Shown here in pieces: positions 2,697 to 25,030 of a DNA stretch of 64,000 nucleotides (position 1 is the first letter of the stretch; each line of letters starts with the position of its first letter). Below the pieces are notes generated by a model. It was not told where the DNA came from, did no database searches, and was given only the letters and a program-made list of their open reading frames with translations. The DNA lies in assembly GCA_965206445.1 (NCBI GenBank), contig CBDBJR010000002.1:2488280-2552279 (forward strand), in the 5' to 3' direction. Made by a program: the position numbers and the translations under genes. Source of the DNA: Candidatus Poriferihabitaceae bacterium. GTDB lineage: Bacteria; Pseudomonadota; Gammaproteobacteria; Arenicellales; Poriferihabitantaceae.

Positions 2697-4049
2697 ATGA
2701 ATCCGTTCGAGTGCTATCTCAACACCCATCCGCAGACCCGTTATCTGGATGTTTTTTGCGCCGATCTGGCCGGGGTCATCCGCGGCAAGCGCTATCCGGT
2801 GTCGGCTGCCGGCAAGGTGTTCGAGTCGGGTATGATGCTGCCGGGCGGCTGTTTTTTGCTGGCGGCGAACGGCGAATCGATGGACCCGGAGGGCATGGGG
2901 TTTTCCGACGGCGACCCGGACGAGGTCGGCCTGCCGCTGCCGGCAACGCTGGTGCCCGCACCCTGGGCGCAGCTGCCCACCGCTCAGGTGATGGTCAGCC
3001 TGCACAGCCTGGCCGGGGTGCCGTATTATTTCGAGCCGCGCAATGTGCTCAGGCGGGTGCTGGAGCGGTTTGGCGAATTGAATCTGCGCCCGGTGGTGGC
3101 CTTCGAGCTGGAGTTTTTCCTGCTCGCCGCGCGCGACTCCCCTGCTCCGCCGGGTGCGCCCGAGCCGCTGCTGGCCGGGCGGGCGAACGACAGCCCGCAG
3201 GTCTATAGCCTGCAAGAGATCGAACACCACAGCCGACTGCTGGATGAGATCGTCTGCGCCTGCGAGACCCAGCAGATTGCCACCGGGGCGATCTCGGCTG
3301 AATACGCGCCGGGGCAATTCGAGATTAATTTGCAGCACAGCGATCAACTGCTGCAAGCGGCCGACCATTGCGTGATGTTCAAACACGCGGTACAAAGCAT
3401 CGCCCGCAAACACGGGTTACAGGCGACCTTTATGCCCAAACCGGTTGCCGAGCTGAGCGGCAGCGGTTTGCACCTGCATCTCAGCCTGCTCGACCGGCAG
3501 CAGCGCAACGCCTTCGACGGCGGCGGGGTGTACCCGGCCCCGGCCTGCGGCAGCGAATTGCTGTATCATGCGATCGGCGGCTTGCAGCACACTATGGGAG
3601 ATTTTATGGCGGTTTTCGCACCTTCGATCAATTCCTACCGGCGCTTTATGCCGAACCGGTATGTGCCGGTCTCGCGCAGCTGGGGGTTTGAAAATCGCTC
3701 GGTTGCGATCCGCATCCCCGCCGCCGCCGGCAACGCCCGGCGCATCGAGCACCGCGTCGCAGGCGCCGACGCCAACCCCTATCTGGCGCTGGCGGCGCTG
3801 CTGTCCGGCATCCACTATGGCATCAGCCGAAAAATCGCCGCCGACAGCCCGAGCCGGGGGAATGCCGGCGCCCACCGCGACGCGACGCTGCCATTCGAGG
3901 CCGAGCCGGCGTTTCGTGCCTGCCGCGACAGCGCCACCGCCGCCGCGTATTTTGGCGAGCGGTATATCCGCGCCTATACCAGCTGCAAATTGAACGAATA
4001 CCGGGCCGTGGTCGAACGCGGCCTGCCCGATACCGCCTGGTATCTATAG
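2697..4049 (+). CDS. Glutamine synthetase-family gamma-glutamyl-amine ligase (PuuA/SpuI-like)
   Basis: DLAGVIRGKR, GDPD, AFELEFFL, EYAPGQFEINL, ATFMPKP, GSGLHLHLS, ENRSVAIR, IEHRVAGADANPY. Confidence 0.9.
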   Translation: MNPFECYLNTHPQTRYLDVFCADLAGVIRGKRYPVSAAGKVFESGMMLPGGCFLLAANGESMDPEGMGFSDGDPDEVGLPLPATLVPAPWAQLPTAQVMVSLHSLAGVPYYFEPRNVLRRVLERFGELNLRPVVAFELEFFLLAARDSPAPPGAPEPLLAGRANDSPQVYSLQEIEHHSRLLDEIVCACETQQIATGAISAEYAPGQFEINLQHSDQLLQAADHCVMFKHAVQSIARKHGLQATFMPKPVAELSGSGLHLHLSLLDRQQRNAFDGGGVYPAPACGSELLYHAIGGLQHTMGDFMAVFAPSINSYRRFMPNRYVPVSRSWGFENRSVAIRIPAAAGNARRIEHRVAGADANPYLALAALLSGIHYGISRKIAADSPSRGNAGAHRDATLPFEAEPAFRACRDSATAAAYFGERYIRAYTSCKLNEYRAVVERGLPDTAWYL

Positions 4050-4101
4050 CCGCATCGGTCGAGCCCGCGATGCGTTAATCCACCCACCCGGATGCACAGC
4101 C

Positions 4102-6186
4102 ATGAATGATTCCGCCAACCGCTACGCGATTTTGTTTGAACCGGTGCAAATCGGCCCGGTGACGGCCAAGAACCGTTTCTACCAGGTGCCGCACTGCAAC
4201 GGCATGGGGCATCTGTACCCCAAAGCGGTCGCCGCCAGCCGCGGGGTGAAAGCCGAAGGCGGCTGGGCGGTGATTGCCACCGAGGAATGCGAGATCCATC
4301 CGGGCAGCGATCTGTCGCCGTACATCGAAACGCGGCTGTGGGACCAGCAGGATATGCGCCATTTGCAGCTCAGCGTCGACGCGGTGCACGCCCATGGTGC
4401 GCTGGCGGCGATCGAGCTGGTGCACAACGGCCACTACGCCGGCAACCGCTACAGTCGACTGCCGGTGATGGGGGTCAGCGATCTGATGGGCAACACCTAC
4501 GACCCGATGCAGGCCTACGCGATGAGCAAGCGCGACATTGCCAACGTGATCAAAATGCACCGCCAGGCGGCCCTGCGCGCGCGCGACATCGGCTTTGATA
4601 TTGTCTATGTGTACGCGGCCCACAACGCCACGCTGCCGTTCCATTTTCTCAATCCGCGCTGCAATCGACGCAGCGATGAGTACGGCGGCAGTCTGGAAAA
4701 CCGGGTGCGGCTATTGAAGGAGCTGTTGATCGACACCAAAGAAGCGGTCGGCGACCGCTGCGGCGTCGCCATCCGCCTGGCGGTGGATGAGTTGCTCGGC
4801 GACGACGGCATCTGCGCCGGGCAGGAAGGCCGGGAAATCGTGGCCATGCTGGCCGAGCTGCCGGATTTGTGGGATGTCAACGTGTCGAACTGGGAAAACG
4901 ACTCGCTGTCCTCGCGGTTTGGCGAGGAGGGCGCGCAGGAGCAGTACACCCGCTTCGTCAAACCGCTGACCAGCAAACCGGTGGTCGGCGTCGGGCGCTT
5001 CACGTCGCCCGACGCGATGGTGGCACAAATCAAACGCGGCGTGCTGGATCTGATCGGCGCCGCCCGACCGTCTATCGCCGACCCGTTTCTGCCGAAAAAA
5101 ATCGAGAGCGGTCAGCTGGACGATATCCGCGAGTGCATCGGCTGCAACATCTGCGCCGCCAGCGACAACGTCATCCACCCGCTGCGCTGCACGCAAAACC
5201 CGACCACCGCCGAAGAATTCCGGCGCAACTGGCACCCGGAGCGCATCAGCAAAAAATCCGCCGACGCGCATATTCTGGTGGTCGGCGGCGGCCCGGCCGG
5301 GCTGGAGGCCGCCATGTCGCTTGGCCGGCGCGGCTACGACGTCACGCTGGTCGAAGCGGGCGCGGCGCTGGGCGGCCGCGTGCTGACCGAAAGCCGGCTG
5401 CCCGGGCTGGCCGCCTGGAAGCGGGTCGCCGACTACCGTACCGGCCAGCTCGACAAACTGCCCAATGTCACCGTGCATCTGCACAGCGAGCTGAACGCGC
5501 AGCAGATCCGCGAGTTCTGTGCCGAGATGCAGATCCGCGACGTGGTGCTGGCCACCGGCAGCCGGTGGCGCACCGACGGCCTGGGCTATGAACACGAGTG
5601 GCCGATTGAGACCGATGGCAGTGTCTGCATCCTGACGCCGGATGATCTGATGGCCGATGACAGCCGGCTCGAGCGGCTGGAGAGCGTGGTGGTTTATGAC
5701 GACGATCATTACTACATGGCCGCCGCATTGGCGGAAAAGCTGGCCACCGCCGGCAAATCGGTCACCCTGGTCACCCCCGCCGCCGAGCCGGCGGAATGGA
5801 GCGACAACACGCTGGAACAGGAGCACACCGAGAAACGGCTGTTTGCGCTGGGGGTGGAGATCATCGCCAAGCACACCATCGACTACATCGAAGACGGCCA
5901 GCTGTATCTGGAGCGCGTCAACAGTGAAACGGTAACCGCCATCGTCGCCGACGCCTGCGTGATGGTGACCTCGCGGCAGGCGAACAATCAAACCTATCAT
6001 GATTTGGTGGACGAATTCGACCAGCCCCGGCACAGTGAGTTGCGCACGGTAACGCGGGTCGGCGATGCGTTGGCACCCGCCACCATCGCCGCTGCGGTTT
6101 ACCATGGTCACCGTTATGCGCAGGAGTTTGGGAGTCCGCCGGACGTGCTCGAGGTGCCGTTCAAGCGCGAATATATTGCGATTTAG
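4102..6186 (+). CDS. Trimethylamine/histamine dehydrogenase-family iron-sulfur flavoprotein
   Basis: NRFYQVPHCNG (Cys for covalent FMN), YVYAAH, 4Fe-4S motif ECIGCNIC...CTQNP, GGGPAG Rossmann motif. Confidence 0.9.
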   Translation: MNDSANRYAILFEPVQIGPVTAKNRFYQVPHCNGMGHLYPKAVAASRGVKAEGGWAVIATEECEIHPGSDLSPYIETRLWDQQDMRHLQLSVDAVHAHGALAAIELVHNGHYAGNRYSRLPVMGVSDLMGNTYDPMQAYAMSKRDIANVIKMHRQAALRARDIGFDIVYVYAAHNATLPFHFLNPRCNRRSDEYGGSLENRVRLLKELLIDTKEAVGDRCGVAIRLAVDELLGDDGICAGQEGREIVAMLAELPDLWDVNVSNWENDSLSSRFGEEGAQEQYTRFVKPLTSKPVVGVGRFTSPDAMVAQIKRGVLDLIGAARPSIADPFLPKKIESGQLDDIRECIGCNICAASDNVIHPLRCTQNPTTAEEFRRNWHPERISKKSADAHILVVGGGPAGLEAAMSLGRRGYDVTLVEAGAALGGRVLTESRLPGLAAWKRVADYRTGQLDKLPNVTVHLHSELNAQQIREFCAEMQIRDVVLATGSRWRTDGLGYEHEWPIETDGSVCILTPDDLMADDSRLERLESVVVYDDDHYYMAAALAEKLATAGKSVTLVTPAAEPAEWSDNTLEQEHTEKRLFALGVEIIAKHTIDYIEDGQLYLERVNSETVTAIVADACVMVTSRQANNQTYHDLVDEFDQPRHSELRTVTRVGDALAPATIAAAVYHGHRYAQEFGSPPDVLEVPFKREYIAI

Positions 6187-6191
6187 CGGGT

Positions 6192-6261
6192 GGAACAGGA
6201 GCACGGACATTCCTGTCCGTGTTTTCAAAATAAACGGGTTGGAAAACCCGTTCTCCTTTCC
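6192..6261. repeat. 70-bp inverted GGAG-REP doublet, copy 1
   Basis: GGAG-CACGGACA-TTCC-TGTCCGTG, an AT spacer, then an inverted GGAG-AACGGGTT-TTCC-AACCCGTT; 69/70 identical to 7017-7086. Confidence 0.9.
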
Positions 6262-6316
6262 TGCAGAATGCCGGCCCCTGATTACCACCTTTATATGGTG
6301 TTAAAGTATCGTTCTA

Positions 6317-6859
6317 TCACCACTTTATCATCGGTACTGGATTATTGAATGGATGCTTCATGATACATTTAATAACCATCTTACCCGCGTTTTTATGAAA
6401 GTCGGCATTTGGGAATTGAGCTTTAACTTGCTTTATATGGGTTTTAGGTATGCCGGACTTAAATAAACCAAGGGAAGCATCCACCCGATCGGCTTTGCGG
6501 AAGGCTTCAACAAGTGGATAGGGTGGGTCTTTGTGCTGTGTAATCTTATGATGCTGAGTGATCATTAGCTCTATTTCCTCTGACCATGCTTCCAGATTTT
6601 TCTTTTTTAAGTATTCCATTGCCAGCGATACGGATGGAGGAAGGTAATCGAGCGTATTTTCGACCCATGCTCCGAGGTCGTGGAAGGCACCTGCAATAAT
6701 TAGTTTTTCTCTCTCTTCCTCACTGCAATCTTTAAGTATAAGACAAAAATTAACTGTGCGGTACACGTGATTTTTATAGCCTTCGTAAACAACTCCGAGG
6801 GGCTTCTTCCAACTCGCCAATATTTCTTCGAGTAAAGCAAACTGTTTTTCAACGATCAT
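6317..6859 (-). CDS. HD-domain metal-dependent phosphohydrolase-like protein (AT-rich, foreign-looking)
   Basis: YKNHVYR, AGAFHDLG, ITQHH, FRKADRVD; AGGAG ribosome-binding site upstream of the ATG at 6859. Confidence 0.8.
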   Translation of the reverse strand: MIVEKQFALLEEILASWKKPLGVVYEGYKNHVYRTVNFCLILKDCSEEEREKLIIAGAFHDLGAWVENTLDYLPPSVSLAMEYLKKKNLEAWSEEIELMITQHHKITQHKDPPYPLVEAFRKADRVDASLGLFKSGIPKTHIKQVKAQFPNADFHKNAGKMVIKCIMKHPFNNPVPMIKW

Positions 6860-6943
6860 TGTCACTTCTCCTTGCTGTAGAACTCTAGTAGAAGGTAACG
6901 TATTTTGCAGTTGTTTTCCATCACTACTCATCCCGTTCCCGCC

Positions 6944-6973
6944 TTGACGCAACATGGGAGGGAAGCCCATAAT
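6944..6973 (+). promoter_or_regulatory. Sigma70-like promoter upstream of the tRNA fragment
   Basis: TTGACG (6944-6949), 18 bp, CATAAT (6968-6973); lies 14 bp before the tRNA 5' end. Confidence 0.55.
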
Positions 6974-6987
6974 CCCCTCTATCCCGT

Positions 6988-7018
6988 GCCGACGTGGCGG
7001 AATGGCAGACGCGCCAGG
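6988..7018 (+). tRNA. 5' half of a tRNA-Leu (truncated pseudo-tRNA)
   Basis: GCCGACG-TG-GCGGAATGGCAGACGC-G-CCAGG matches the acceptor 5' strand, Leu-type D-arm and 5' anticodon stem; the anticodon and 3' half are absent. Confidence 0.75.
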
Positions 7019-7086
7019 AACAGGAGCACGGACATTCCTGTCCGTGTTTTTAAAATAAACGGGTTGGAAAACCCGTTCTCCTTTCC
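7017..7086. repeat. 70-bp inverted GGAG-REP doublet, copy 2
   Basis: Direct repeat of 6192-6261 with one mismatch in the spacer. Confidence 0.9.
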
Positions 7087-7087
7087 A

Positions 7088-10000
7088 TCAGGGCGCCGGC
7101 TCGATGCGAAAAAACAGCGCGTACAACGCCGGCACCACTACCAGCGTCAGCACCGTGGCGAAGCTCAAACCAAACACCAGCACCACCGCCATCGATTGGA
7201 AAAATGCGTCGAAAAACAGCGGCGCTACGCCCAGCACCGTGGTCAGCGTGCCCATCATCACCGGGCGCACACGGCTGATTACCGAGTCTATCACCGCGGC
7301 ATGGCCGGGTTTGCCGCGGTCGGTTTCAACCCGCATCTGATCGACCAGCACAATCGCGTTTTTCAGCAGCAGGCCCGACAGCGAGAGTACGCCCAGAATG
7401 CTCATAAACTCCATTGGCGTGTCGGTCGCCAGCAGGCCGGCTACGACGCCAATCAACGCCAGTGGCACCACCAGCCAGATGACCACCGGTTGGCGGACGG
7501 TGCCGAACAGGACAAACACCACCAGCACCATCGCCAGCAATCCGAGCGGGATGGTCGAGGCCAGGTTTGCATTCGATTCTTTGGCATTGCCATGTTCGCC
7601 GTCCCATTCGAGCGTGTAGCCGGCGGGTAATTCGATCGCTTCTATCGCCGGTCTGATGCGCGCAAACAAATCCGCCGCCAATGCCTGCGGGTAGGGGTCG
7701 CTTTGCGCTTTAATCGTCCAGACGCGGTCTTCACGCCGTAAAAGACTGTCGCGCCAGACGGTTCTAAAGCCGTCGGTCACCTGGCGAATGGGCACCACGT
7801 TGCCGGTCGCGGAGCTTAATACCTGGATGTTTTCGATGTTCTCGACGCTGTGCCGTTCTTGAATCGGGGCGCGCGAGATGATCGGCAGCAGGTCGTCGCC
7901 TTCGCGGTATACCCCGACGGTTTTGCCGGAAAAACCGGTCTGCAACGCAGCCGCCAGATCCTCTCTGGAAACCCCGGCGCGCAGCCCCTTGCCGGCGGCG
8001 TAGATCGGCTCGATCACGCTCACCGGCTGGCGCCAGTCATCTTTGACCGACAGCGCGCCGCCGTCGGCGAGCATGATTGCCTTGGCCTGATTGGCCAGGC
8101 GGCGCAATACCGCCGGCGCCGGCCCCTTGAACACCGCCTCGATTTTCGAGCCGCCGCCGGGGCCGAGGACAAAGCGCCACACCTTGGCCTGCGCGTTGGG
8201 GTAATGGTCGCGAATATGGCGCTGGATCTGCGGCAGCAGGTGCTCAATTTGTCGGTAATCGTCAACCCGGGCGAGAATCTGCCCGTAAGCCGGGTTCGAC
8301 GATTCGGGCGAATAGATCAGCATGTAGCGCAGCCCGCCGCCGCCAATCAGCGTCTGCACCGCGTTAACGCCGTCGAGCGCGGCGACGAATTGCTCGACCT
8401 GTTTCAGGTCGGCTTGCGTACGGGCGATCGAGGTGCCCTGCGGCAGCCAGTAGTCGACCGCCAGCTGCGGCGTGGTGGAGGCCGGGAAAAAACCCGGCGT
8501 GACGAATTGAAACCCCCAGACCGACACGCCAAACAGCACCACCACGGCGCCGACAACCCCCTTGCGCGCGCGCAGCGTGTGATGCAGCAACCGCCGGCAG
8601 GCGGTTAAAAACCACGGCTCGCGCCCGGCGCCGGCGGCGTGTGGCGCGGCGTCTTTGAATAGCCAGTAGCAAAACAGCGGCGCCAGCGTCAGCGCGAATA
8701 CCCAGCTGAACAGCAGCGAGATCAAAACCACCCAGAACAGATGCCCGGTATATTCCGCCGTATCGCCCGGCGCAAAGCCGATCGGGGCGAACGCGATGAT
8801 GCCGACCAGCGTGCCGCCCAGCAGCGGCCATTTGGTCTGCGCAACGACCTCACGGGCGATGTCGATTTTGCCTCTGCCCTGCTGCACGCCGACGAGGATG
8901 CCCTCGGTGACGACAATCGCATTGTCCACCATCATGCCGAGCGCAATAATCAGCGCGCCGAGGGAGACGCGGTGCATCGGAATATCGGCGAGTTGCATCG
9001 TCGCCAGCGTGGCCAGGATGGTCAGCAGCAAAACCGCCCCGATCACGAGCGCCGAGCGCAGCCCCATAAAGATCAGCAGCGTCACCAGCACAATCACCAG
9101 CGTGGCAATCACGTTGAGCACGAAGTTGCCCACCGCGGCATCGACGATCCGACCCTGGTGGTAGTACTCATGCAGCTCGATGCCGAGCGGCCGGCGGCGC
9201 TGCGACTCGGCAATTTTGCTATCGACCGCCTGCCCGGTTTTGACCACGTTGCCGCCCTGTACCGCGGCCACCCCGAGCGCAATGGCCGGCTTGCCGTTGT
9301 AGCGAATCAATTGCTGCGGCGGCGTTTCGTAGCCCCGCCATACGGTGGCAATGTCTTTCAGGTAAACGATTTTCCCACCGGCCGCGCCCGCCACCAGCAG
9401 ATTCTGGATCGCCGCAACCGAGTCGATCGCCCCGGACGGGTCAATCACGACGGTTTGCTCGCCAATGTCGACGCTGCCGGCGGCAATGACCGCATTTTGC
9501 TGTTCGAGTATGCGGTAAATCTGGTTGACCGATACGCCCAGGGTCACCGCGCGCGCCTGCGCAATTTCAATAAATATGGCCTCGCGCAATTCCCCCGCCA
9601 GGCTGACCTTGGCGACGCCGGCGACTTGCAGCAGCTCGCTTTGCAGTTGCCGGGCATAGCGGCGCAGCTCGGCCGGCGTATAGCCGTCGCCGGTGATGAA
9701 GTAATAGGTGCCGTAGACGTCGCCAAAATCGTCATGCACGATCGGCGACGCGGCCCCCGGCGGCAGCATGCGCTCGGCATCTTTGATTTTGTTGCGCAGC
9801 TTGCTCCAGACAATCTGCAAATCGGCCTTGCTCGGGGAAAAGCCGTATTTTATTTCGACGTTGAGCTGCGATACGCCGGCCGAGGAGACCGACTTCACCA
9901 CCTCCACTTCCTGCAACTGCTGGATTGCCCGCTCCAACGGCGCCGTCACCTCCTCGGCCACCTCCAGCGGACTCGCGCCCGGATAGGCGGTAAATACCTG

Positions 10001-10138
10001 GGCGATGCGGATGGTAAATTCCGGGTCCTCAAACCGCGCCATGTCCCGATACGCCGTCCACCCGCCGACGACGACAAGCGCTATCGCAATGATGCTGAGT
10101 ACGGTGTTTTTGATTGTGAATTCGGCAATGCTAACCAA
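7088..10138 (-). CDS. RND efflux transporter permease subunit (AcrB/AcrD/AcrF family)
   Basis: 1016 aa; EDPEFTIR, YPGASP, ALGMMVDNAIVV, KNAIVLVD, RVRPVMMG. Confidence 0.93.
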   Translation of the reverse strand: MVSIAEFTIKNTVLSIIAIALVVVGGWTAYRDMARFEDPEFTIRIAQVFTAYPGASPLEVAEEVTAPLERAIQQLQEVEVVKSVSSAGVSQLNVEIKYGFSPSKADLQIVWSKLRNKIKDAERMLPPGAASPIVHDDFGDVYGTYYFITGDGYTPAELRRYARQLQSELLQVAGVAKVSLAGELREAIFIEIAQARAVTLGVSVNQIYRILEQQNAVIAAGSVDIGEQTVVIDPSGAIDSVAAIQNLLVAGAAGGKIVYLKDIATVWRGYETPPQQLIRYNGKPAIALGVAAVQGGNVVKTGQAVDSKIAESQRRRPLGIELHEYYHQGRIVDAAVGNFVLNVIATLVIVLVTLLIFMGLRSALVIGAVLLLTILATLATMQLADIPMHRVSLGALIIALGMMVDNAIVVTEGILVGVQQGRGKIDIAREVVAQTKWPLLGGTLVGIIAFAPIGFAPGDTAEYTGHLFWVVLISLLFSWVFALTLAPLFCYWLFKDAAPHAAGAGREPWFLTACRRLLHHTLRARKGVVGAVVVLFGVSVWGFQFVTPGFFPASTTPQLAVDYWLPQGTSIARTQADLKQVEQFVAALDGVNAVQTLIGGGGLRYMLIYSPESSNPAYGQILARVDDYRQIEHLLPQIQRHIRDHYPNAQAKVWRFVLGPGGGSKIEAVFKGPAPAVLRRLANQAKAIMLADGGALSVKDDWRQPVSVIEPIYAAGKGLRAGVSREDLAAALQTGFSGKTVGVYREGDDLLPIISRAPIQERHSVENIENIQVLSSATGNVVPIRQVTDGFRTVWRDSLLRREDRVWTIKAQSDPYPQALAADLFARIRPAIEAIELPAGYTLEWDGEHGNAKESNANLASTIPLGLLAMVLVVFVLFGTVRQPVVIWLVVPLALIGVVAGLLATDTPMEFMSILGVLSLSGLLLKNAIVLVDQMRVETDRGKPGHAAVIDSVISRVRPVMMGTLTTVLGVAPLFFDAFFQSMAVVLVFGLSFATVLTLVVVPALYALFFRIEPAP

Positions 10139-24961: not shown

Positions 24962-25030
24962 GAACAGGAGCGCGGGCTTCCCAGCCCGCGAAATATAAAT
25001 AAACACAGGCAGGAATGCCTGTGCTCCTTT
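24962..25030. repeat. Inverted GGAG-REP doublet with variant stems
   Basis: GGAG-CGCGGGCT-TCCC-AGCCCGCG, an AT spacer, then an inverted GGAG-CACAGGCA-TTCC-TGCCTGTG; same GAACAGGAG/CTCCTTT ends as the 6192 element. Confidence 0.85.

Follow-up and report, generated by a model that had tools for sequence, protein, structure and literature searches.

How does a gene module that carries no recognisable recombinase come to lie between two almost identical copies of a repeat that is scattered through the surrounding genome? The question is raised by a stretch of 64,000 nucleotides (the window; contig CBDBJR010000002.1, positions 2,488,280 to 2,552,279 of the forward strand) from a Candidatus Poriferihabitaceae bacterium of the Gammaproteobacteria. 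Two direct repeats of 70 bp, at 6192-6261 and 7017-7086, are identical at 69 of 70 positions and lie 825 bp apart from start to start, the sole mismatch being C in the left and T in the right copy at position 35. They enclose an insert of 755 bp (6262-7016) with a guanine-plus-cytosine (GC) content of about 0.41; in 200-bp windows, the insert ranges from 0.385 to 0.48, against 0.59-0.72 in the flanks. The host genes on either side are convergent. An earlier reading of the DNA alone, made without database searches (the sequence-only reading), had described two doublets of repetitive extragenic palindromic (REP) elements, 69/70 identical, around about 755 bp of AT-rich DNA between convergent genes, and the coordinates and base composition agree with this description.

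A module shared with two unrelated genomes

The HD-domain protein encoded in the insert has relatives with 97% and 96% identity in two public chromosomes of metagenome-assembled genomes (MAGs), OZ242192.1 from the Gammaproteobacteria (module locus L014) and OZ242209.1 from the Dehalococcoidia (module locus L015); the genome holding L014 is called G041 and the second MAG genome G042. At the DNA level, the module is 97.5% identical to L014 over 749 bp (window 6262-7009) and 97.0% identical to L015 over 757 bp (window 6262-7017), and these matches comprise the insert alone and nothing of the flanks. Since 97%-identical copies occur in two unrelated genomes, the insert is, to judge by its sequence, a foreign, travelling DNA module, in line with the earlier claim that it stems from another genome. 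The features of the locus are as follows, C1 and C2 being contigs of this genome.

4102-6186, plus strand: left host gene, a 694-aa FMN/FAD oxidoreductase (Oxidored_FMN and Pyr_redox_2), stop codon at 6184-6186
6192-6261, plus strand: left REP doublet with C at position 35; GGAG with 8-bp stem and TTCC loop, spacer, inverted second REP, outer stem
6262-7016, no strand: foreign module, 755 bp, GC about 0.41, 97.5% and 97.0% identical to L014 and L015
6317-6859, minus strand: intact HD-domain hydrolase gene, 180 aa (Pfam HD PF01966)
6868-6873, minus strand: ribosome-binding site AAGGAG, 8 nt ahead of the ATG of the HD gene, read from the sequence
6944-6973, plus strand: promoter-like site TTGACG-18-CATAAT facing the tRNA piece, 10 of 12 consensus matches
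6988-7016, plus strand: 5'-terminal 29 nt of a tRNA-Leu(CAG)-type gene, cut short at the right doublet, recognised by similarity to the genome's own tRNA-Leu(CAG)
7017-7086, plus strand: right REP doublet with T at position 35, same sequence as the copy at C2:942574
7088-10138, minus strand: right host gene, an AcrB-family efflux pump, stop codon at 7088-7090
7152-7343, no strand: pump-gene segment copied at 97% identity at C2:1548051-1548242, where the copy runs up to the core border of a further doublet

Only 5 bp lie between the stop codon of the oxidoreductase gene and the left doublet, and 1 bp between the right doublet and the stop codon of the pump gene, so that no further intergenic DNA remains. 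The intact HD gene (Pfam HD, E 2.1e-6, 28.5 bits, cut-off 22) and its ribosome-binding site had been recognised correctly by the sequence-only reading, as had the divergent promoter; the tRNA piece, put there at positions 1-31 of tRNA-Leu, is 29 nt long and about 90% identical to the genome's own tRNA-Leu(CAG) over this length. The statement that the insert lacks integrase, transposase and attC also stands: no recombinase was found, with Pfam run on the HD frame and the overlapping frames of at least 40 aa (6546-6668, 6700-6852, 6905-7630 and a longer start, 6317-6970) judged by reading, and no GTTRRRY core site was seen on reading both strands of the 70-mer, a genome-wide search for an integrase not being part of the analysis. 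ARAGORN detected no whole tRNA in the 64-kb window or in loci L014-L020, and no Rfam family was found at E up to 1 in the region 5900-7400.

The three copies of the module end at different points. At the left end, L014 and L015 share 14 bases more than the window copy and then diverge from each other, and at the right end the tRNA piece is shortest in L014, with about 22 positions of the gene, and longer in the window (29) and in L015 (about 50). No REP doublet lies beside the module in either L014 or L015. On each side of the L015 insert, which comprises 318 bases besides the tRNA piece and the module, stands a copy of one 361-bp stretch of ordinary host DNA in direct orientation (L015:2460-2820 and 3917-4277), namely the 3' end of a dehydrogenase-like gene with its downstream region; a flanking duplication thus does not need a REP. 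The final 90 of these 318 bases consist of short repeats that are multi-copy in G041 and in the genome studied here, and not in the genome of L015 itself. In G041 (L014:953-2790), a restriction-modification gene pair directly adjoins the module on its tRNA side. A hairpin beside the L014 module was considered as a REP family of G041 and rejected, as it occurs there only once.

G041 was likewise rejected as the donor. Its own tRNA-Leu is intact, different, located elsewhere and without an HD gene beside it, and all three module-bearing genomes therefore look like recipients. The donor predicted earlier, with the HD gene divergent from a complete tRNA-Leu, did not appear among the loci or in plasmid, phage and viral searches. 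A 20-mer from the promoter was found among genome contigs only in the two MAGs, in no viral contig, and once among metagenome contigs, in a chance match that proved unrelated on reading. A 35-mer from the tRNA piece occurred in at least 118 stretches, and none of the 80 loci kept from these has an HD relative or the promoter; a distant-mode search of plasmid and phage collections gave no match to the module. Elements that use tRNA genes as integrase attachment sites carry 3' parts of the tRNA; this type of origin was rejected, because the insert contains a promoter and a 5' tRNA part that is cut at three different places in the three copies.

The REP doublet family and its RAYT-like gene

The genome contains 23 near-full copies of the doublet (18 on C2 and 5 on C1), which are 94-100% alike. 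The bracketing pair is therefore not a chance match, and not a unique pair either; the left doublet is the same as three other genome copies and the right doublet the same as one. Each strand of the doublet opens with GGAG, after which the two arms of an 8-bp stem enclose a TTCC loop, and the two REPs (REP1 and REP2) are inverted relative to each other, with a short T/A spacer between them and an outer stem closing the element. Folded as single-stranded DNA, the doublet reaches a predicted -21.6 kcal/mol (z -5.65), a value that none of 200 shuffled sequences attained. Unlike in a classical REPIN (a paired REP unit), the two REPs do not pair lengthwise with each other. Genome-wide, hairpins of the form GGAG-stem8-TTCC-stem8 account for 95 of the 133 with any four-base tag, the runner-up tag having 16, and they fall into at least five stem subfamilies with covarying stems. 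By these features, the repeat population is recognisable as REPs and the 70-mer as a GGAG-tagged REP doublet of two inverted hairpins, as had been proposed. Single GGAG hairpins also occur in the window at 1087-1110 and 25004-25027, with compensating stem changes relative to REP1.

Most doublets are intergenic, the exceptions being the copies at C2:637791 and C2:641925, which lie within hsdR reading frames; the doublet at C2:777454 has the same 5' flank as these hsdR-located copies. Flanks with a GC content below 0.50 were counted in 12 of 46 cases, compared with 10% of all 300-bp windows, the flanks not being mutually independent. No doublet match was listed for the 40 related genomes searched.

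A search for genes of REP-associated tyrosine transposases (RAYT, Y1_Tnp) next to GGAG-tagged REPs had been suggested as a check, and a RAYT-like gene flanked by the doublet is indeed present. A single clear match to a Y1 transposase lies in the genome, at C2:637223-637531; it scores 25.7 bits with Pfam Y1_Tnp (cut-off 23) and 74.7-79 bits with NCBIfam NF047646 (below the cut-off of 80), and the H-V-H and Y..NP motifs are visible by eye in its translation. The match is embedded in an open frame of 1212 aa that is otherwise the R subunit of a type I restriction enzyme, with HSDR_N in residues 5-203, a motor domain that starts near residue 500 and a TIGR00348 match at E 1.5e-133. The doublet at C2:637791 is read through in frame 5' of the Y1 part, a single REP1-like hairpin lies on the 3' side, and the RAYT-like gene has no start codon of its own. 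Doublet, Y1 domain and single REP are thus placed between the nuclease and motor domains of hsdR (C2:634871-638509, minus strand). Alongside this full copy the genome holds a cut one: at C2:641111-642667, a second hsdR N-terminus is followed by a doublet and by the start of a RAYT, cut after H-V-H and fused to an HsdS-like fragment, and this truncated copy adjoins genes that resemble defence genes.

The 2.2-kb region comprising hsdR, doublet and RAYT is 91-92% identical in both unrelated MAGs, and the doublet that G041 holds in this region is 96% identical. Taken with the shared module, these matches show that this genome and the two MAGs clearly exchange small pieces of DNA. In addition, a 35-bp repeat of the genome studied here (L031:12373-12407) has dozens of counterparts in G041 that are 97-100% identical to it, including a run spaced at about 91 bp at G041 C1:77462-77948.

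How a doublet may have come to flank the module on both sides

The layout is observed more than once in this genome, as duplicated DNA meets a doublet border at four further places. At C2:942320-942988, a 255-bp duplication surrounds a doublet plus 90 bp; at C2:766530-767127, pieces of 339 bp and 180 bp are joined via a doublet, their originals lying in reverse order at C2:768293-768889; and at C1:471043-472477, a 25-bp duplication surrounds three doublets and a DUF480 gene. The fourth joint involves the right host gene of the window, as 192 bp of the pump gene (7152-7343) have been copied at 97% identity into an intergenic region, where the copy ends exactly at the doublet core at C2:1548242; the source segment ends just past a hairpin with the REP2 stem (CGGGTT..AACCCG). 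At the joints examined, a few nt at most separate the new DNA from the 5' side of a GGAG tag. The inserts bracketed by the 255-, 339- and 25-bp duplications begin with a doublet. At the C1 locus, a doublet plus about 91 bp is tandemly repeated beside the low-GC DUF480 gene. This doublet-bracketed gene was rejected as a second shared cassette, its best relative having 55% amino acid identity, and it was not found in G041 or G042.

The explanation favoured here, tentatively and with a probability of roughly 0.45, is that a recombinase-free module was joined at a stall or break in a single resident doublet, which was thereby copied onto both sides. A single REP doublet would once have lain between the two convergent genes, in a position resembling that of a two-way terminator. 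A foreign module of about 0.76 kb, extending from the HD gene through its upstream region into the adjacent tRNA-Leu gene, would then have arrived and been joined at the doublet in a one-off event without a recombinase, leaving a full doublet on each side (target-insert-target). The doublet is taken to be a structure-prone site of stalling or breakage, at which the nascent strand or the broken ends may have used the foreign DNA as filler and re-entered upstream, so that the doublet would be copied twice; the route could have been template switching at the hairpins, or staggered breakage at both borders followed by fill-in. The anatomy, the foreign origin, the REP/RAYT identity and the recurring layout can be read directly from the genomes; that a single doublet came first, how the events were ordered and which enzymes took part is inferred.

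Several observations are in accordance with this course of events. The duplicated unit fits the 70-bp family unit exactly and no other intergenic DNA is present, which is why one resident doublet is thought to stand now on both sides. The ends of the module lie near those in L014 and L015, indicating that the module's own ends were joined directly to the doublet borders, and such direct joining makes two later doublet insertions unlikely. The target-insert-target layout in L015 and elsewhere in this genome suggests a general process in which foreign DNA is copied or joined at a structured site. No Ku gene was found in the genome (96% complete), so that classical end joining is unlikely, and copying or strand transfer is favoured. 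The strong predicted fold of the doublet agrees with its being a site of stalling or breakage. In-register matches between donor and host at both joints are patchy, at 7/14 each, and fit weakly.

Other observations weigh against the favoured explanation. The microhomology is weak, since chance alone would, by a rough estimate, give a 7/14 match in 4-9% of registers. A fresh duplication should give identical copies, yet the two doublets differ at the main polymorphic site of the family (position 35), so that the explanation depends on a subsequent change or conversion. No flanking duplication of at least 20 bp is present in L014. The two 361-bp copies in L015 differ by 12 mismatches, 11 of which lie inside 77 bp, and this clustering, which looks more like two alleles than like slow divergence, suggests that one copy arrived with the insert. 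An empty site with a single doublet, proposed earlier as a check on capture, was found neither in the 40 relatives nor in the contigs of four sequencing runs. Of the original proposal that the module was captured at a REP doublet with duplication of the latter, the fit of the layout is retained, while the REP-free copies in L014 and L015 and the differing doublet alleles speak against it.

The allele difference and the clustered L015 mismatches together speak for another course, a single crossover with DNA that brought a doublet along. A piece in circular or tandem form, composed of the module and one doublet, would have recombined, in the manner of Campbell integration, with the resident doublet via the shared 70 bp; the module-doublet piece would have formed in another strain or at another locus, and the doublet would be no more than portable homology. 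The flanking doublets are indeed different alleles of the family, each matching copies elsewhere, and doublet-bearing DNA does move, as this genome shares doublet and RAYT gene with the two MAGs at 91-96% identity. REPs have also been described as hot spots of recombination and transposition (PMC1525189). Nevertheless, the two ends of the module must already have been placed exactly against doublet borders by some preceding event, the L014 and L015 copies have no adjacent doublet, and the 7-9/14 matches of the left joint to locus-unique sequence would be unexpected for a ready-made circle. On balance, this course is rather unlikely.

Contigs of other strains bear on both of these courses. Contigs of four runs from four studies were compared with window 5000-8600, a comparison in which rare forms are invisible; the run that holds the region best is possibly the source sample of this assembly. 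One contig each in runs X1, X5 and X6 (three studies) parts from the window exactly at the left border of the left doublet (6190-6193), which counts in favour of a stall or break at the doublet. Over the left gene, the X1 and X6 contigs show 7 and 16 differences in about 1190 nt (about 99% identity) before departing at 6193 and 6190, respectively, and the X1 contig continues with 1057 unlike bases; the X5 contig has the same loose end as X1 and X6, but covers the left gene only from 6089. The only sequence in this genome that is similar at the departure is C2:498745, 30 bp from another doublet. In X1, a contig of 92 nt spans the doublet-module joint (6227-6319) with no mismatch, one gap and three variant sites specific to the window, while the X1 contig over the left gene stops short of the doublet, a combination compatible with a crossover. 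Most module contigs in the runs carry MAG-type variants (X1, X6 and X8, and X5 at three of four sites).

Capture driven by the RAYT is less probable still and must be called improbable. The nuclease would cut 5' of GGAG on each strand and join the foreign DNA there, fill-in would duplicate the doublet, and cassettes would leave as circles. Consistent with this, both doublet strands begin with GGAG and a hairpin, a RAYT-like gene is flanked by the same doublet (Y1_Tnp 25.7 bits; NF047646 74.7-79), new DNA abuts a few nt 5' of the tag at the joints examined, the copied pump-gene fragment ends just past a hairpin with the REP2 stem, and a Ku gene was not found. However, cutting and joining by the nuclease at this site would be purely conjectural, the nuclease itself stays below the NCBIfam cut-off and, lying inside hsdR, lacks a separate start codon, the module has integrated away from doublets in two other genomes, and the two doublets are not identical. 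Neither an excised circle, for which a size of about 825 bp had been predicted, nor a joint that skips the insert was detected in the contigs of the four runs. A wider proposal, in which the doublets are landing pads cut by the RAYT for arbitrary DNA and are duplicated like CRISPR repeats (clustered regularly interspaced short palindromic repeats) to form excisable cassettes, with the HD module and the four further joints as products and the system travelling between phyla inside a type I restriction gene, is held to be of low probability as well.

Two separate insertions of the doublet, one on each side of a module already in place, are very unlikely. The 23 copies at 94-100% identity do point to a recent spread of the family, and the flanking copies are different alleles; both insertions, however, must have hit the joints between module and host exactly, leaving no intergenic DNA beyond the 5 bp and the 1 bp that precede the neighbouring stop codons. 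An assembly artefact, be it a chimeric join at the repeat or contamination from a co-sampled organism, is barely credible, because, for all the repeats of this genome and the variants of other genomes in the module contigs of X1, X6 and X8 (and X5 at three of four sites), the window copy is about 3% different from the MAG copies and the independent X1 contig covers the doublet-module joint with the window's own variants.

Known systems and the cargo

The feature is of a known kind, REP/RAYT. As in REPIN/RAYT systems, two inverted tagged hairpins form the unit, copies number in the tens and are mostly intergenic, and these REPs also border a Y1/HUH gene. The differences concern the tag, which is GGAG here and not GTAG or CGTC, and the architecture, with two REPs that have different stems and form two hairpins inside an outer stem. 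They also concern inheritance. In the abstracts of two studies, which mention no doublet duplication around a foreign gene, the RAYT is described as single-copy and vertically inherited (PMC3337134; bioRxiv 10.1101/2021.07.10.451892), whereas the RAYT-like gene here is present in a full and a cut copy, lies in frame within hsdR and is shared at 91-92% identity with two unrelated genomes.

REPs and bacterial interspersed mosaic elements have been reported as hot spots for the insertion of insertion sequences and of strain-specific DNA (Tobes and Pareja 2006, PMC1525189). The locus resembles such hot spots in that a REP between convergent genes marks the landing of foreign or mobile DNA at a strain-variable site. 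It differs in that, in that account, an insertion sequence with its transposase splits the REP, whereas here there is no transposase and a whole doublet stands on both sides. An origin as an insertion sequence or composite transposon was rejected for the module: the HD gene, the frame on which Pfam was run, is the only one of the insert with a family match, and the length of the flanking repeat is not fixed, with 70 bp here, 361 bp in L015 and no repeat in L014.

A preprint mentions that a CRISPR-like role has been proposed for REPIN-RAYT, and reports no REP circles (10.1101/2024.07.17.603846). The likeness of the present locus to CRISPR spacer uptake is one of layout only, as there are no cas genes and no array, and the new piece is a whole 755-bp gene module. 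When a CRISPR spacer is integrated, staggered attack at the borders of a palindromic repeat leaves the repeat on both sides of the new piece. Integron cassettes are single small genes that are bracketed by similar structured repeats and leave as circles; the cassette considered here differs in having its own promoter and a tRNA piece, and its repeats are scattered singly in the genome. Template switching at quasipalindromes is reportedly the subject of work by the Lovett laboratory, and REPs are said to have been found as join-points of tandem duplications (Shyamala et al. 1990). As in such joints, hairpin repeats mark the joints and the layout is target-insert-target, but the filler here comes from another organism, the known cases being confined to one genome. 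Full-text searches of the literature brought up no account of a captured foreign gene with a duplicated REP doublet around it, which does not prove that there is none; GGAG-tagged classes may be listed in supplements of the papers concerned.

With a doublet duplicated around a foreign gene, several more joints at doublet borders and a RAYT-like gene that moves between unrelated bacteria inside hsdR, this one genome allows a direct test of the idea that foreign DNA enters at REP doublets. A recombinase-free module of 0.76 kb that is found at 97% identity in three distant genomes, twice between long target duplications, would represent a route of transfer that is missed by ordinary searches for mobile elements.

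The HD protein has 213 relatives of about 179 aa each in gammaproteobacterial and cyanobacterial records, and H31, H60, D61, H103, H104 and D124 are invariant in 30 sequences of the family. Among the three HD copies, the ratio of nonsynonymous to synonymous differences (pN/pS) is 0.43-1.16, on 8-11 differences, too few for judging selection. The protein matched no PADLOC family and gave no significant sequence match in the PDB, either as a single sequence or as a profile. Its structure was predicted with a mean local confidence (pLDDT) of 91.6, and the top match among solved folds was the cyanamide hydratase Ddi2 of yeast (template-modelling score, TM, 0.68; E 0.017); Ddi2 chains as a whole reached TM 0.64-0.69 at E 0.017-0.04 with 12-15% identity, and other HD hydrolases came next. 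The predicted structure shows both the H...HD...D metal-binding motif and the all-helical fold of the HD superfamily, and the cargo protein is a putative HD-type metal hydrolase.

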